64,000 nucleotides of DNA from positions 32,001-96,000 of the IMG/VR virus record IMGVR_UViG_3300033984_000416, one strand, 5' to 3'. This DNA comes from a virus. A program made the position numbers and the translations under genes. How positions within the stretch are numbered: position 1 is the first letter of the stretch; every line of letters begins with the position of its first letter. The notes beneath the pieces are model-generated. The model was not told the DNA's origin and ran no database searches. It was given only the letters and a program-made list of their open reading frames with translations. Below, piece by piece: positions 30,301-63,786 of the stretch.

Positions 30301-33300
30301 TTCCATTAACAAATTCAAAGAACATTCTTTTGAATTCATTTTTTACCTGTTGTGGTAATCTATTAATAAGGTGTTCATCATCAATTTCTTGATAATCTAT
30401 TAACGCTGTAAGCTCTAAGGCTGTTACATACATATCTCGTGTAGGTGGTGTAAATGTTTGTGTTAAGTTTTTATGCCAAAGTATTGGGTCGTTCTTTCCA
30501 GAACCACCACCCGTTATTTTACCACCTTCAACCACTGGGTTGTTTGTTTGTTTTCGCCATATTATACTACCTATATAAGCACACCAAAGTCTAGGTGCGT
30601 GAACAAAACCACCTTTTTTATCAAACAAGTGTTTAATTTCATTTGTTTCTAAAGCACTACCTTTGGTTGTATTCCATGGAAGTGAATTTAAAAATAAAAA
30701 CGCTTTTGAATAATCACCACATGGAACCGTTGAGTTACTTGAAGTTGTTATACGTGCATATCCTTGGTTATAATAAAAATAACTACCAAATAAACTAAAA
30801 GAATCCTCATCATAAGCATCTCTATAATTAACGTTTTCAGATGCTTTAAACATAAAGGCTCTTTGTTCAACATAAGGGTAAGTAATATCTTTAACATTAT
30901 TGTTTATCCATTCGTTAAAAAAGTCTCTGTTTTTACCTAAATCTAAGTGAAGTGTATCTATTTTTTTTCCTTTATACCAACCTTTGTAAAACTCTTCTTT
31001 ATTTGCTGGTAGCCTAATGTTTCCAGTTTTTTTGAAATCCGACCATGATGTTGCTGAACTTCCGTCTGGTGAATTATCGTGTTTTTTTCTATTATACGCT
31101 AAACCACCATCTGTATTTTTATAAAACACAAACTCTAAGGGTAATTTAGTCATTCCATTACCATAATCTAAATTAGCATACTCTTGAATACCTAAAGGTC
31201 CACCAAATGTATTGTAACCAGCACTATTATCAACAATTTCATCGGCTGATAGTTTTTCCAATATTAACATATTGTTTTCTGGTTTAACTTTTTCTGGTGC
31301 TGGATATAAAAGTGCTTTTGTTTTAAACTCATCTGCTTTTAGTATTTTAATATAAACACCACCATCATCTGGTTTACTAAAATCACCATTTATTGTCGTT
31401 GCTGTACCATAATTAGAGCTGTAATTAGTTAAAAAAATGTAACCTTCTTCTTTTGATTTTAATGAAGTTTTAGCTGGTTCAATAATCCACTTACCAGTAT
31501 AACCACCATTAATTGGTATTACCATGTGTAAATCTGGATTACTGTACGTATATGTTTTTGTTTTTGTAGATACTGGGTTTCCACCAATATAGTTATAAAA
31601 ATAATTATCACCTAGAGGTTTTATTACATTTGTTGGTAATGCACCTCTAGCGTTTAAATCTATTTCACCAATTACACTAGTCACAGCACTTAGAGTTAAC
31701 ATAGACATCGATGATTTTATTTTAGGGTCTTTAACACCTCTTAATATGGCTTCAGATTCAATCTCGGCCATACTAATAATATCATCAGAAGTCATAATTG
31801 TTTCATCGTTTGTATAACCTAAAAAAGTCATACCTCTAATAACCATAAGTCTTGCAACTTCATCGTAATTTTTAAATTCCATTCTACTGTATGGCTCTGT
31901 AGTGTTAAAAATAGATGTATCAATTGGGTTGCTTGGGAACCAAGTTGTTTCTTGTTTTTCGGTATCCGCTTTAACATCTTCACTAGCTTTTGCGGCTTTT
32001 AAAAATGCCGCCAATAAATCATCAATAAATACTAATTCATTAACATCTTTAGGTTTTTCTAAAACACCTAAAGTACCTAAATATTTTTCAACATAGCTTT
32101 TTGTTTTTTCATCTTTTTCTCGATAATCTGGCCATGAAAAATATTTTTTAGTATCTAAATGTCTTTGCGTTAAATCACTATTTACAATATCAGTTTTAAA
32201 TTTTTTTTCTAGTTGGGTTGTTCTAGGGTCGTTTGGTTCAAATTCAGCCGCAACCGAAACATCAAAAATAGTTTCCATAAACACTTCAACGGCAGCTGTA
32301 AATACTTCTGTAATATTTCTAACGGTTGGTTCAAACCCTAAATCTTTTGCAACGCTACTTTTTAATTCTTTAGCAAATTCTTCTTTTGCCCCTTTTAAAT
32401 TTTGTTCAATTTGAGTTCTAGCCACAGATATTTTTTCAAATAATAAATTCATGTTGTAAATATCAACAACCACTTTTGGGTGATTAAATTTATAATTTGT
32501 GTTTAAATAATCATACAATTCTTTTTTGAATTTAGAAAAATCACTAGGTGAACCTAATGTTTGTTTTAAAACTTCATCAACCGCTGGGTCGCTAGTTGCT
32601 GGGTCTAGCATTTCTAAAGTTAAATTACCATAAAAACCCTTTCCTGGACCAGCTATGCTTATATCTTGAAATTCTTTAAGTACTAATTGAGCACCAGCTT
32701 TAAATGCGTTGAATGTGTCTATGTTTGTTTTAATATTCTCAGAGTATAACCCTATTGCTCTATCTTGATTTATTTTATCAGTGTCTGAAACTTCGTGAAG
32801 TTTCACGATATATGGGTATCTTTCTTTATTGGTATCAATATCAATAACTTGTCCCAATACTCTCATAACAATTTCTATAGCGTCTAGACTTTCTAAAGCT
32901 TTATTTATAGTATTTGTAGCAGCTGCGTTTTTAGATGATGATGATAATTTGCTTATACCTTTATTAACCTTAGAAATTGCTTGCATTAATTCAACCAAAG
33001 TTAATAATTGTGGTGCATCAGCTTTTCTATTGTCTCTATATTTTTGGTATTTATCTTCACCTATTGTTGTAAAAGGTATAGCTTTTAAATAACCAATAAG
33101 CATATCTGATAACATTGCGTAAGTATAACCGATAAATTGACATTGAATTTCAAAATTACCAGTTTGTGAATTAAATTTAGAACTAAATTTAAGCATGTGA
33201 AGACAATAAGTTACTGGTAACCCGTAGTATCCTTTTATTTCCAATTCAAACAATGGATATGGTAGTTGGAAAAACGTAGCATATTTATTACCACTATTAT

Positions 33301-59497: not shown

Positions 59498-60555
59498 TAT
59501 ATTGTACTACCTATTAATTTGAAAGTTCCAGTTGCCAAGAAATTTTTATATACCCTTATATTTATTACATCATTTGCGAAAATAATCAAAGGACTACTTA
59601 AAACCGTACCATCAAATACTCCAACGCCATTAACAGTAATTACAATTCTAGAAAGATACTCAATATCAACTAGTTGTGTAAAATTTACATCATATAATGC
59701 TGTAAACGAGAATTGTGGTTCTGATTTTGGTTTCCAAACAAAACTATAAGTAACAACGTTACCCTTTTTTAAAGGTTCAAAAATTACATTGTTATAAATC
59801 CTAGTATCATCAACTTCCATAGTTAAAACACTTCTATTTATCGTAGGTATAACTTCGTAATCTTCTTCATCTAGAATATAACCCAAAAGTTTCATTTCAA
59901 ACATTTGAACATAAAATCTTCTATTTTCAAAATCTTCAATATTACTCTCATCACCAATAGTTTCTAAATGCAACGGCATAGGGTGACCATTTACGTTGAT
60001 GTAGCATTGTCTTGATTGGAAAGCTCTTTGTATCTTACCATTAAACTTATTTAAGTCCTTCATTTTATTAGTAAACAATCTAACCTCGTAAGTCAAATCG
60101 ACAGCAGTTGGTTGTGGTACCTTATATAAATCAACACCACGTCTAACACCATCCCATGTCGGAACTTTCATATATGTATATGTTTGTTTTCCTGGTATGT
60201 TCCATAATCCAGCTTGGTTTTGACCTTGTTGAATATCTGGTTTTCTAACTATTGTGATAAACGGTAATTCTATGTTTTTGTATTTGTCTGAAAATTGCCA
60301 TGTTCTACTAAATTCAGTCCATCTTTGTATTGTTAAAAATATAACAGGAATCTTGGCACCATCAACACTAATAGAAAGACCTTCATCTAAATTCATAAAT
60401 TCGACAAAGCTTTGGTCCATGTCTTCTTCCATCACTCCTCTTGGTAAATAAGTTCCTTTGTCAGCAATTCCGTCAAGAATTTCTTGTCTTCTAGGGAAAC
60501 CTATCTTACCTTGGGTAATGTCAATATTCGTTTTGTATCCTTTTGGCATTGCCAT
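59497..60555 (-). CDS. Tail completion / sheath stabiliser (T4 gp15-like)
   Basis: IPVIF...LPFITIVR...PTAVDLTYEVRLFT pattern; adjacent to the neck gene. Confidence 0.7.
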   Translation of the reverse strand: MAMPKGYKTNIDITQGKIGFPRRQEILDGIADKGTYLPRGVMEEDMDQSFVEFMNLDEGLSISVDGAKIPVIFLTIQRWTEFSRTWQFSDKYKNIELPFITIVRKPDIQQGQNQAGLWNIPGKQTYTYMKVPTWDGVRRGVDLYKVPQPTAVDLTYEVRLFTNKMKDLNKFNGKIQRAFQSRQCYINVNGHPMPLHLETIGDESNIEDFENRRFYVQMFEMKLLGYILDEEDYEVIPTINRSVLTMEVDDTRIYNNVIFEPLKKGNVVTYSFVWKPKSEPQFSFTALYDVNFTQLVDIEYLSRIVITVNGVGVFDGTVLSSPLIIFANDVINIRVYKNFLATGTFKLIGSTI

Positions 60556-60574
60556 AGTTTCATCTTTTTATTAA

Positions 60575-61093
60575 TTACATTCCTCTGAATTCACTAGCGT
60601 CAACACTTGCACAAACAACTGTTCTAAACGCACCTTTGTAACCCATAATGGTATGTATGTTATCGTAATTTTTAGCCCCATCATTGGAAACACTAAAATA
60701 TCTAATTTCAGTTTCCGTAACAGGATAGCCGATGTAATCACCGTAGCTAATTTCAGTATCTAACTCACTTAATTGAGCTTCGTATATACCAAAGGTTAAT
60801 TGACCATCTTGAAGATATCTCAATCCACCATCCTTGTTATAAGCTTTATTCTCTGGAGCCGCCATAATTGGCATAATCTTAAGTTCTAAAGGTGGGAAAA
60901 ATCTTATACCATCTTTAGATGCCTCACCATACAAGTTATCAGATTCAGTCATTTCTCGATTAACTCGATATAAAATCACTGTAAAGTTTCCATCACCTTC
61001 AATAGCCTCACGACCCATTTCAATTTCTAATTGAAAATCCGATTCAGAGAAAAATTTATTAATTCTCGTAATAGGTACAATAGATTTAGACAT
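60575..61093 (-). CDS. Neck / head-closure protein (T4 gp14-like)
   Basis: DNLYGEA...FFPPLELK...GQLTFGIYEAQLSEL...ISYGDYI. Start MSKSIVP at 61093 overlaps the endonuclease stop. Confidence 0.7.
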   Translation of the reverse strand: MSKSIVPITRINKFFSESDFQLEIEMGREAIEGDGNFTVILYRVNREMTESDNLYGEASKDGIRFFPPLELKIMPIMAAPENKAYNKDGGLRYLQDGQLTFGIYEAQLSELDTEISYGDYIGYPVTETEIRYFSVSNDGAKNYDNIHTIMGYKGAFRTVVCASVDASEFRGM

Positions 61094-61733
61094 ATTTAAC
61101 TCCTTTCTTTTTTGACGGAACACCTTTTTTAGTTTCCGAAATTTTTGTTATTACTTCTTTAGAATGGTTTTTACCATAAAAATGATTTTTTTTACCCATA
61201 TGTGATTCGCTCATTTTTTTCTTTGTTTCTTCACTTAATTTAACACCTTTTTTAGCGTTTCTTATTTTTTCTTTAGTTTCCTCAGACATTGGTTTTCGTT
61301 CAATAAGTTTTTGTGATTCACTCATTTTTTGTTTAGTTTCATTACTAATATTTTTACCTTTATGTGCATTACTTAATTTTTCTTTATGTTCTTCAGTGAA
61401 TTTAATACCGATTCTAACCTCACTCATTTGTTTTTTTGTTTCTTCAGAATGTTTACGATTTAACATCGTCCCATTAGTTCCACCAAGACAAATATTATAA
61501 CCAATTAATTTATCTGTCGATTTATATTTTAAAATATAATTTTGCTCCATTTCATTCAGTTCTTTTTGTGTGTCACATTGACACAAAATTTCTTTTTTAA
61601 AATTTATTAAACCATATTTTTTTATTGCTTTTTTAATTAAATCACCAGAACCAAAATAATTAAAATTGTTTTTACTGTCTTGACCAATATAGATTTTACC
61701 ATTCACTAAATTTGTTGTTTTATATATTACCAT
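61086..61733 (-). mobile_element. Free-standing GIY-YIG homing endonuclease with ~6 NUMOD3 repeats
   Basis: VIYKTTNLVNGKIYIGQ...YFGSG; repeats HSEETKKQMSE, SEETKEKIR, SEETKKKMSESHMG. Confidence 0.92.
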
Positions 61734-61791
61734 AATAATTTTTTTAAATAAATATCATAATTATTCTATTTATGTAAGTTATTGGTGTTAT

Positions 61792-61836
61792 TTATTTATT
61801 GATACGTGTGATTGGTGTTATTTTCTTGTTGTCCAT
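61792..61836 (-). pseudogene. Orphaned 5' end of the neck gene (MDNKKITPITRINK*)
   Basis: Hand-translated; PITRINK is identical to the neck N-terminus MSKSIVPITRINKFF; has its own ATATTTAT motif at 61847. Confidence 0.8.
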
Positions 61837-61944
61837 CGTTTTTATTATAAATATTTATCTTTTGATTAATATCACCAAACACTTGATTTTTATTTATTTT
61901 TTTCTTATATTTAGATATAATTACCAGGATAAAACAAAAAGACA

Positions 61945-63786
61945 TTGATAAATTTAGACGACATACGAGGACATTCAGCAATTTCACTTCTAGAAGATTA
62001 TGAAGGTATTAACCCATATCTTAAGAAATTGAAGATTGCTTACTTAAAGAATAAAAAATTGGCTCTTACTGAGAACCAATCAAAATATATATTAGATAAT
62101 CACGATAGACAACCACAATACATCAATCGAGTGATTGGTATTACTAGCTATCTAGGTGATGAGTTAAAAAAACAAAATGAATTATCATTTACACCAGAGA
62201 AAATTCTAATCGAATTTATACTGGCCGATACTGAAAAAACATTTCACGTTTACGGTAAGCTTAAACAAAACCAAAAAGAATCTAAGATGTATTGGTTACC
62301 TAAAACACAGGTAACTGATGACCCATATTTTGAAGAAATAAAAGTAGAAGTAGATTTTACAAAATACAACGATATCTTAGCTGAGACGGGTAAAAAACTT
62401 TATGAGCATCAAGAAGACGGAATTAAGTTTTTATTGTCTAGAAACGGCTGTATATTAGCTGATGACATGGGATTGGGTAAATCTATACAATCTATTATTG
62501 CTGCGTTAGAAAGCGGAGCCAAAAAGATACTAGTTGTTTGCCCATCTTCAACAAAGATTAACTGGGAAAGAGAAATAAACGTTTTTTGTGACGATACAGC
62601 AATCATTGATGGTAAAAAATGGAACGATGCTAAATTCACGATTATTAACTTTGATATTCTTAAAAATTTCCATACTCTTAGTACTGGTAAAAAAAGAAAA
62701 GAAGGCGAACCAGAAGAAGTATTAAATAGAGAATTAGCCAACGCTGGTTTTGATTTAGCAATCATTGATGAGGCTCATTATTTGAAAAATAATGAAAGTA
62801 TCCGTGGTAAGGTTATGGTAGAGTTATCAACAAAACACAACATTGATAAGGTATGGTTACTTACAGGAACACCTGTTGCCAATAGACCTATGGATTTCTT
62901 TAATCTATTGAAGATTATTAAGTCACCTATTGCCGATAACTGGAAACACTTTGCGGTTAGATATTGTGATGGAAGACAATTCTTTAGAACACTTAAAAAT
63001 GGTCAAAGAAAACAAATATGGTTAACTGACGGTGCTAGTAATCTTGAAGAATTGGCATCGAAAACAAAAAACATTATAGTTAGACGTTTAAAGACTGAAG
63101 TATTGGATATGCCAGACAAGGTAATGACACCTATGCATCATATGTTAGATAAAAAAGGGCTTAAAAATTATGAGTTGCTTTGGGAACAATATACCGAGAA
63201 AAGAAAATTAGAAGGTAAGAAAACGAATGAGTTACAAAAAGATTTGGTTGAACTTATTCTTTTAAGACAATTTATTGCTTTAGAGGCTATTCCTTATACT
63301 ATTGAAATGGTTGAAAATGCGATTGAAATGGGACGTAAGGTAATTGTTTTTACAAGCTTTACCGAAGAATTAGAAATAATAACAAACCATTTTGGAAAGT
63401 TAGCCGTTAAACATAACGGGCCAATGACGACAACACAAAAACAAAGGTCTGTAGATGCTTTCCAAACCAATCCAAAGGTTAAGGTTTTTGTTGGTAACAT
63501 TAAATCAGCTGGTGTTGGTATTACACTTACTGAAGGTACTGTTGTGATATTCAATTCATTTGATTGGGTTCCTGGAAATAATGAACAGGCTGAAGATAGA
63601 GCGTTCCGTATTGGTCAAAAGAATGATGTTAATGTTTACTACCAATTATTTGACGATACAATCTCAACTAGAATGTGGAATATGTTAAACAGTAAAAAAG
63701 ATGTTATATCAACCATTATGGGTGATAAAAAATTAACAGATGATGAAATAACTGCCTTATTGGTGGATGAATTAATAGCAGCATAA
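61945..63786 (+). CDS. SNF2/SWI2-family helicase-like ATPase
   Basis: DDMGLGKS, IIDEAH, LLTGTP, QAEDRAFRIGQ. Confidence 0.93.
   Translation: MINLDDIRGHSAISLLEDYEGINPYLKKLKIAYLKNKKLALTENQSKYILDNHDRQPQYINRVIGITSYLGDELKKQNELSFTPEKILIEFILADTEKTFHVYGKLKQNQKESKMYWLPKTQVTDDPYFEEIKVEVDFTKYNDILAETGKKLYEHQEDGIKFLLSRNGCILADDMGLGKSIQSIIAALESGAKKILVVCPSSTKINWEREINVFCDDTAIIDGKKWNDAKFTIINFDILKNFHTLSTGKKRKEGEPEEVLNRELANAGFDLAIIDEAHYLKNNESIRGKVMVELSTKHNIDKVWLLTGTPVANRPMDFFNLLKIIKSPIADNWKHFAVRYCDGRQFFRTLKNGQRKQIWLTDGASNLEELASKTKNIIVRRLKTEVLDMPDKVMTPMHHMLDKKGLKNYELLWEQYTEKRKLEGKKTNELQKDLVELILLRQFIALEAIPYTIEMVENAIEMGRKVIVFTSFTEELEIITNHFGKLAVKHNGPMTTTQKQRSVDAFQTNPKVKVFVGNIKSAGVGITLTEGTVVIFNSFDWVPGNNEQAEDRAFRIGQKNDVNVYYQLFDDTISTRMWNMLNSKKDVISTIMGDKKLTDDEITALLVDELIAA

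Follow-up and report, generated by a model that had tools for sequence, protein, structure and literature searches.

The window analysed here is a stretch of 64,000 nucleotides (nt) of viral DNA, positions 32,001 to 96,000 of the IMG/VR record IMGVR_UViG_3300033984_000416. Near its end lies a gene for a 172-amino-acid (aa) neck protein, at whose 5' end a free-standing homing endonuclease gene is lodged. Very probably, this is a homing cassette that does without an intron and replaces the end of the gene it enters, in this case the 5' end of a phage neck gene. Such a cassette would carry a fossil stub and a promoter-like motif ahead of its GIY-YIG/NUMOD3 endonuclease gene, and would also supply a ribosome-binding site and 13 codons that substitute for the native gene start. 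Translation of the neck protein would start in the ordinary way at the ATG that the cassette brings along and that overlaps the endonuclease stop. Upstream, the native promoter and neck codons 1-14 would persist as a stub that is not translated for function.

The duplicated start of the neck gene

In the DNA of the relatives L082-L085 (L numbers denote the loci compared), the neck gene is uninterrupted and endonuclease-free, and the stub of the window is identical to their gene start. Compared with L083, the window is identical base for base over the whole intergenic region and the gene start up to ...ATCAATAA; it then carries 740 extra bases, after which the sequence resumes at TTTTTCTC. The upstream of its two 21-mers encoding PITRINK matches L083 except for the last base (A vs G). 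Because the window matches L083 on both sides of the insert, the stub is, as judged from the alignment, the ancestral neck start, and the insertion point lies between codons 14 and 15. The duplicated start is also far beyond chance, since the stub and the intergenic region are identical to those of L083. Among the 120 neck homologues listed, most are 173 aa long and 42 have exactly the MDNKKITPITRINKFF start; the closest ones among them (97% and 95% identical) combine a start of this type with the window's own body sequence. The preliminary description of this DNA had placed a GIY-YIG-type homing gene within the 5' end of the neck gene and had left it to an alignment of relatives to decide which N-terminus is ancestral. 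The uninterrupted empty alleles bear out the former, and the aligned relatives decide the latter in favour of the stub.

The cassette start MSKSIVPITRINK is in frame with native codon 15 onward, which would give a protein of 172 aa vs 173 aa in the relatives, and all examined 172-aa alleles are linked to an endonuclease or to an endonuclease relic. The neck open reading frame (ORF) reads MSKSIVPITRINKFF and overlaps the endonuclease stop within ATGTCTAA. The native leader is without a site of the AAAGGAG type. Although their endonuclease genes diverge by as much as 23%, all six cassette copies of the window's type (type A, below) share, without a single difference, the 22 nt that lead up to the replacement ATG (TCAAAAAAGAAAGGAGTTAAAT). 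The conservation of AAAGGAG-N6-ATG speaks for an ordinary initiation of neck gene translation, which would begin at the cassette-borne start. Since the cassette has its own ribosome-binding site and start, the earlier claim that a replacement N-terminus is supplied holds. The accompanying claim that the gene has been split does not: the downstream copy is complete, with 172 codons, the stub is a relic, and an older stub inside the cassette has decayed.

The two PITRINK copies are each continued by AATAAAT at their junctions, and both end AATAAA-T, so that a join of the stub to codon 15 would be in frame. This speaks for a cryptic intron or a translational bypass, by which the 740 nt would be removed or hopped and the second N-terminus would be incidental. 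Phages can indeed bypass short gaps beside a mobile endonuclease, as in T4 gene 60. However, only 58 nt of the insert are non-coding, all of them upstream of the endonuclease ORF and none downstream, and the stub is followed straight away by TAA. A search of positions 60400-62100 against Rfam at E<=10 returned no group I or II intron or other RNA family, only four noise matches. Moreover, the AAAGGAG-N6-ATG is perfectly conserved in the cassette, the decay of the older stub means that stubs are not maintained, and at L157 a stub is fused to endonuclease debris with the substitute start retained (see below). Splicing or bypass is thus left with next to no probability, and the earlier conclusion that homing here is intron-free can be kept along with the homing cassette itself.

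Both insert junctions are bridged by contigs from two other studies, and the arrangement is therefore not an assembly artefact of one sample; the contigs of four DNA runs included none running past the insertion site without the cassette, and so no endonuclease-free allele. The source is a 121-kilobase (kb) IMG/VR fragment with a completeness of 36% according to CheckV. As its relatives sit on contigs of 270-372 kb and the DNA sequencing runs containing the stretch are labelled lake water and freshwater metagenomes, the host genome is that of an uncultured freshwater jumbo phage. Among the sequencing runs listed as containing the stretch, none is an RNA run.

The 172-aa protein has 954 metagenome homologues. 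It is identified by fold alone, because it matched no Pfam or PHROG family, gave no tblastn match in 50,697 phage records, and its family profile found no match among PDB sequences. An AlphaFold2 model built from a 70-sequence alignment (predicted local distance difference test, 82.8; predicted template modelling score, 0.73) was compared with the PDB by Foldseek. It matched 9mkb_0 from the T4 portal-neck-tail complex (E=1.5e-4, template modelling score 0.63), the T4 gp13/gp14 assemblies 9lu7_M, 9lu5_M and 9lu6_M, and many neck or stopper chains, with a probability of 1.00 each. Fold matches in BFVD carry the name 'neck protein'. In L082 and L083, a gp13-like gene (PF26809) is found three genes away, past the helicase and a glutaredoxin gene. 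The modelled fold supports the assignment to T4-type neck or head-closure proteins, and with it the label used in the preliminary description; the T4 chain matched is perhaps gp14.

The 215-aa enzyme matches phrog_314, 'homing endonuclease' (E=1.5e-46), and has four NUMOD3 repeats (87.6 bits) after an N-terminal part that is recognisable as a GIY-YIG domain of the SegE type but scores below the Pfam cut-offs (see below). A phmmer search against the PDB gave no match to solved GIY-YIG structures, only spurious matches to methyltransferases, and blastn of the locus against phage records matched only the GIY-YIG N-terminal domain of unrelated Seg-like genes. The six endonuclease ORFs of type A are all intact, with ratios of nonsynonymous to synonymous substitution rates of 0.11-0.30; by these values the endonuclease is under purifying selection.

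The promoter-like motif ATATTTAT / TATTTATA is strand-biased in the window, with 19 copies on the minus strand (for instance at 61854, 61755, 55294, 46381, 42804 and 1886) vs 6 on the plus strand. Of the minus-strand copies, 11 lie 18-60 nt upstream of minus-strand gene starts. Nearly all endonuclease-free relatives have AAATATTTAT before the neck ATG, and an equivalent ATATTTAT precedes the endonuclease in all cassette copies. This motif is probably the core of a phage promoter. Table 1 collects the features of the locus. Its stub, endonuclease and neck gene share the minus strand, and the SNF2 helicase gene upstream of them is transcribed divergently. The mini-ORF, the endonuclease ORF, the overlapping neck start, the two PITRINK spellings and the AATAAAT had all been located correctly in the preliminary description.

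Table 1. Features of the neck gene locus in the window, in the order in which the minus strand is read after the helicase gene
Feature	Position	Strand	Remarks
SNF2 helicase gene	61945-63786	+	neighbour, divergent
Promoter-like motif ATATTTAT in the neck gene's native leader	61847-61854	-	18 nt 5' of the stub ATG
Stub, native neck codons 1-14 MDNKKITPITRINK plus TAA (61794-61792)	61792-61836	-	ATG at 61836
Upstream 21-nt PITRINK-coding copy, native (recipient) spelling CCAATCACACGTATCAATAAA	61795-61815	-	from comparison with L083
Mobile unit, 740-bp insert at ancestral codons 14/15	61055-61794	-	from alignment to L082 and L083
Decayed older stub ATAACACCAATAACTTACATAAATAG (about ITPITYINR), inside the cassette	61766-61791	-	recurs in cassette relatives
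Second ATATTTAT motif, cassette-borne	61748-61755	-	22 nt 5' of the endonuclease ATG
Free-standing homing endonuclease gene, 215 aa	61086-61733	-	phrog_314, NUMOD3
Shine-Dalgarno-like AAAGGAG within the last codons of the endonuclease	61100-61106	-	6 nt before the replacement ATG
Putative neck/head-closure gene, 172 aa	60575-61093	-	ATG at 61093; codons 1-13 cassette-derived, native from codon 14
Downstream PITRINK-coding copy, donor spelling CCTATTACGAGAATTAATAAA, cassette-borne	61055-61075	-	from comparison of the repeats

Spread, stacking and decay of the cassette

Cassettes of type A are found in the window, L024, L048, L050, L063 and L089. They measure 710-740 base pairs (bp), and each is preceded by a stub of its own background's type. 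These six copies are spread over at least four phage backgrounds; the unit as a whole is present in at least six, scattered on the gene tree. Their identity exceeds that of the flanks: 88.6% vs 73% between the window and L024, 99.7% vs 90-95% between L024 and L048, and 96.5% vs 86-90% between L050 and L063. On a tree of the gene body, which counts gains and losses alike, the 10 carrier rows need 9 such events, at least 6 of which are required by branches with good support; carriers adjoin empty sisters, the window being sister to the endonuclease-free L082. L048 is a mosaic, with a stub spelled as in its empty cousin L076, a cassette and downstream PITRINK copy as in L024, and a return to the L076 (recipient) type right at the F15 codon, that is, at the cassette border. 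From these comparisons the cassette is taken to be a mobile unit, and its unusually sharp borders suggest a cut at the insertion point.

An exact-pattern scan of viral contigs with the 22-nt junction gave 7 matches, two of which (L086 and L087) are chance occurrences in an unrelated gene. L080 was left out of the comparison, its neck gene and neighbours being fragmented. At L080:2977-3480, the neck gene, the helicase and the neighbours are all in short ORFs, for which frameshifts, a poor assembly or a decaying genome are possible explanations.

The same distribution could be produced by an old and immobile insertion, inherited vertically and made patchy by repeated precise loss via the 21-bp direct repeats. 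An empty allele would be perfectly restored by recombination between the PITRINK copies, the tree does not tell gains from losses, and the divergence between the two cassette subtypes matches that of their hosts. Within subtypes, however, the cassette is far closer than the flanks, as in L024 and L048. The mosaic at L048 places an L024-like cassette and downstream repeat in an L076-like genome, and the enzyme is under purifying selection. Vertical descent with loss is therefore considered quite unlikely, and repeated homing is preferred.

Repeated homing would also leave traces at the stub. In the window, L024, L048, L089, L092 and L094, a decayed second stub directly follows the fresh one, whereas the cassettes of L050 and L063 are without it and are 30 nt shorter. 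The older, in-cassette stub has lost its start and frame, and the pair of a fresh and a decayed stub points to serial invasions. The stub might instead be a functional upstream mini-ORF that tunes the expression of the endonuclease and the neck gene: in the window it has a promoter-like motif and an ATG, its immediate stop precedes the endonuclease ATG by 58 nt, and stubs are intact in every recent insertion. Yet this intactness is explained by recency, each stub being identical to the recipient's relatives, and a regulatory role agrees poorly with the fate of the older stub and with stub ends that vary by locus (TAA directly, or read-through into ITPIS or LIK before the stop). We regard a regulatory mini-ORF as very improbable, and the stub as a relic of invasion.

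Besides type A, three sister types of cassette occupy the same gene: type B (L054), type C (L079) and type D (L092, L094 and L159). Those of L092, L094, L159 and L054 encode enzymes of 253-254 aa, and their substitute starts read MAKS[IV]V, MGKNLI or MENKKIT. In L079, the insertion lies after codon 21, with a duplication of 22 codons, and the stub continues in frame into the enzyme. A genome that had kept an earlier substitute start may have been invaded a second time here, at another codon. At L079:1197-2484, the first 21 neck codons (MAKSVPITRINKFFSAEDYNL), themselves a start of the cassette type, are fused to the endonuclease, and the 22-codon duplicate lies downstream. A second endonuclease ORF was noted at L054:3513-4298. 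It encodes 261 aa with a classical GIY-YIG motif (...IIYCLEDSDGIKYIGKTNNLNQRLYRH...) and immediately follows the neck gene, the stop of which it overlaps, so that endonuclease genes are present on both sides of the neck gene there.

Decay is represented by L157 (GCA_040384245.1, a 350-kb contig). At L157:1377-1508, a relic ORF of 43 codons joins stub codons 1-12 to codons 1-22 of the enzyme and to the enzyme's last 9, and it still overlaps a retained substitute start, MSKPIV. It is a decayed stage of the element. An endonuclease-free allele with the start MSKPIT was observed at L028:2930-3018, where about 70 extra nt separate the promoter-like motif from the ATG. This extra leader includes a stub-like ...CTCGTAAATAG, with weak BLAST support, and may be the scar of a complete loss of the endonuclease. 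The 151-aa endonuclease of L095, which appeared truncated, was rejected as a deletion, as the apparent truncation is a scaffold gap of Ns.

The layout is not restricted to the neck gene. At L101:350-1260 (IMGVR_UViG_3300035698_024968), a T4-type large terminase gene (PF03237/PF17289) has the gene of a 223-aa GIY-YIG/NUMOD3 enzyme lodged in its start; this enzyme is 43% identical to that of the window. Here too a stub (MDQEIVRRTVEKAPEIEYEPLNLNAS, ending in a stop) is present, behind a strong AAAGGAG, and the restart reads ...RRIIDVAPIIEYEPIQ. A scan with the endonuclease protein beyond the known copies returned only enzymes of at most 43% identity at other loci. Of about 25 of these checked automatically for an upstream duplicate of the downstream gene start, only L101 was positive, by a crude 5-mer test that is likely to miss cases.

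Proposed mechanism of homing and basis of immunity

The following sequence of events is proposed. In a mixed infection, the endonuclease would cut endonuclease-free alleles at or near the boundary of codons 14 and 15, and the break would be repaired from the cassette-bearing genome. Homology would be provided on the left by the stub and promoter region and on the right by the gene body beginning at codon 15, so that precisely the 740-bp unit is copied into the recipient. The new allele would escape renewed cutting as its target is split and the left part of it (codons 1-7) replaced. Because an invasion without a usable left arm would add a new stub before the old one, stubs would stack, and the cassette would come to carry a fossil stub. 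Later the endonuclease would decay and the substitute start would stay. The cut position, the basis of immunity and the repair pathway are what we infer here.

The preliminary description had sought the immunity elsewhere, in synonymous recoding as the feature that destroys the target. The two PITRINK 21-mers of the window differ at 6 nt in five consecutive codons, all silently, and these changes could be a selected immunity patch if the enzyme recognises the native spelling and the carried copy lacks it. The copies also differ by 8 nt in L048 and 5 nt in L050, and respelled replacement ends are reported for fungal mobile ORFs (mORFs; PMC3630166). Nevertheless, the difference is 3 nt in L063 and a single nt in L024 and L089, where the cassette is intact. 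Respelling of this extent is also ordinary: over the same 21-mer, random pairs of endonuclease-free alleles are on average 4.75 nt apart, 35% of them by at least 6 nt, and the empty alleles vary freely, using all synonymous variants, including every Pro codon and both CGN and AGR codons for Arg. Moreover, the 'recoded' spelling of the window is 2 nt from the native stub of L089 and 3 nt from that of L048. Both have been invaded, so that this spelling is evidently accepted by the enzyme and is not what destroys the target. Selected recoding thus appears very unlikely, and the difference in spelling is, to judge from the alleles compared, divergence between donor and recipient. The differences that are constant between the carried copy and the target are the replaced codons 1-7 (MDNKKIT to MSKSIV) and the broken continuity of the site, and immunity would more plausibly stem from these than from respelling. 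Of the picture first drawn from this DNA, the intron-free homing with replacement of the 5' end stands, and the split gene and the recoding mechanism are abandoned.

Several observations weigh against the homing cassette as set out above. Types B and C retain a native-like MENKKIT start, and replaced codons 1-7 therefore cannot be the immunity determinant in those types. The GIY-YIG domain of the window's enzyme scores below the Pfam cut-offs, both for PF01541 (16.1 bits, cut-off 22.6) and for PF19835 of the SegE type (22.3 bits, cut-off 25). Its IY...YIG motifs are nevertheless visible (VIYKTTNLVNGKIYIG; VIY...YIG), and sister enzymes at the same locus score above the cut-off (L079, PF01541, 30.8 bits; L054, PF19835, 26 bits), as does the enzyme of L101 (PF01541, 24.4 bits). 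The type-A enzyme of the window is also without the C-terminal I-HmuI-type NUMOD/helix-turn-helix module found in the 253-254-aa sisters of types B and D, and could be weakened or mobilised in trans. Between the window and L050, which represent two subtypes, the cassette is 77% identical and the flanks are 77-78% identical; the cassette is no closer than the flanks there, and the spread is therefore not all recent. Finally, neither of the two flanking co-conversion tracts reaches 10 nt, and so short a tract is unusual for double-strand-break repair.

Extended beyond the neck gene, the proposal is that Seg-like enzymes of freshwater jumbo phages generally use cassettes that replace gene starts in essential virion and packaging genes, namely the neck gene, the large terminase gene and probably others. 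Each cassette would be a cleave-and-rescue drive that brings a promoter motif and a ribosome-binding site as well as a gene start that is resistant. This resistance would arise from a split site and swapped first codons, fossil starts would stack, and the foreign N-terminus would be permanent after decay. The chances of this general form are about even. If it is true, homing drives the turnover of N-terminal sequences in structural proteins. The exchange of MDNKKIT for MSKSIV illustrates that the N-terminus of a virion protein can be overwritten by a selfish element, and that such a change can outlast the element's decay. The same process accounts for odd small ORFs in phage annotations and for N-termini that look 'wrong'. 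With its many homologues in empty, intact, variant and decayed states, the neck gene family offers a sequence-rich natural cleave-and-rescue drive in which target recognition, co-conversion and the cycle of gain, decay and loss can be followed.

Comparison with known homing systems

In the literature searched, no phage precedent for the replacement of a gene start was found, and this mode of homing is apparently undescribed for phages. One candidate precedent (PMC2248197) was rejected, as it concerns a domain duplication in tail fibres.

The closest parallels are the mORFs of fungal mitochondria, which create gene hybrids in atp6 of Allomyces macrogynus and in atp6, atp9, cox2 and nad3 of Glomus sp. 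(PMC3630166). The analogy drawn in the preliminary description is thus an apt one. In both cases an intron-free endonuclease ORF is inserted in a protein gene and a foreign duplicate of the displaced end becomes, or in the window would become, the expressed end (PMC3630166); in both, the native end is left as a relic resembling that of close relatives, and the carried copy is diverged in DNA and conserved in protein. By contrast, the mORFs replace the 3', C-terminal end, often by an in-frame fusion, whereas here the 5', N-terminal end is concerned. The cassette is therefore a mirror image rather than a strict member of this group, and with the 5' end replaced it must also supply the signals for translation initiation. 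The mORFs further differ in residing in organelle genomes and in encoding mostly LAGLIDADG enzymes (the one in atp9 is a GIY-YIG enzyme), as opposed to a jumbo phage here.

A second parallel is provided by the WHO elements, whose homing target in the yeasts Torulaspora and Lachancea is FBA1 (PMC7282813). As proposed here, each integration swaps the end of an essential gene for a resistant version, and repeated homing stacks relics (PMC7282813), comparable to the fresh and decayed stubs described above. WHO elements differ in that they act on the 3' end, reside in nuclear genomes and encode intein-like, HO-related enzymes. Their allele-specific cleavage has been shown experimentally, whereas cleavage by the present enzyme is a prediction from sequence.

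Among phages, the free-standing seg and mob genes of T4-like phages, which practise 'intronless homing', resemble the window's endonuclease gene in layout and probably also in enzyme class, GIY-YIG with NUMOD3 DNA-binding repeats (PMC2988022). They spread by double-strand-break repair with co-conversion of markers in mixed infection (PMC2988022). Unlike the present cassette, they are intergenic, and where they are intragenic (mobE in nrdA, mobA in gene 39/60, seg in gene 43) the gene is left in two pieces that reassemble; a duplicated replacement gene end is not described in the review of these elements, which uses no form of the word 'duplication' (PMC2988022). The group I intron endonucleases of the I-TevI type, lastly, have in common with the window's enzyme a modular architecture, targets in conserved coding sequence and probably the catalytic family. 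They rely on RNA splicing to spare their host gene, in contrast to the intron-free cassette considered here, which does so by a duplication of the gene start at the DNA level. To the introns, inteins and intergenic sites by which mobile endonucleases coexist with essential genes, the neck gene cassette would add a further way of sitting in such a gene, that of carrying a spare gene start.

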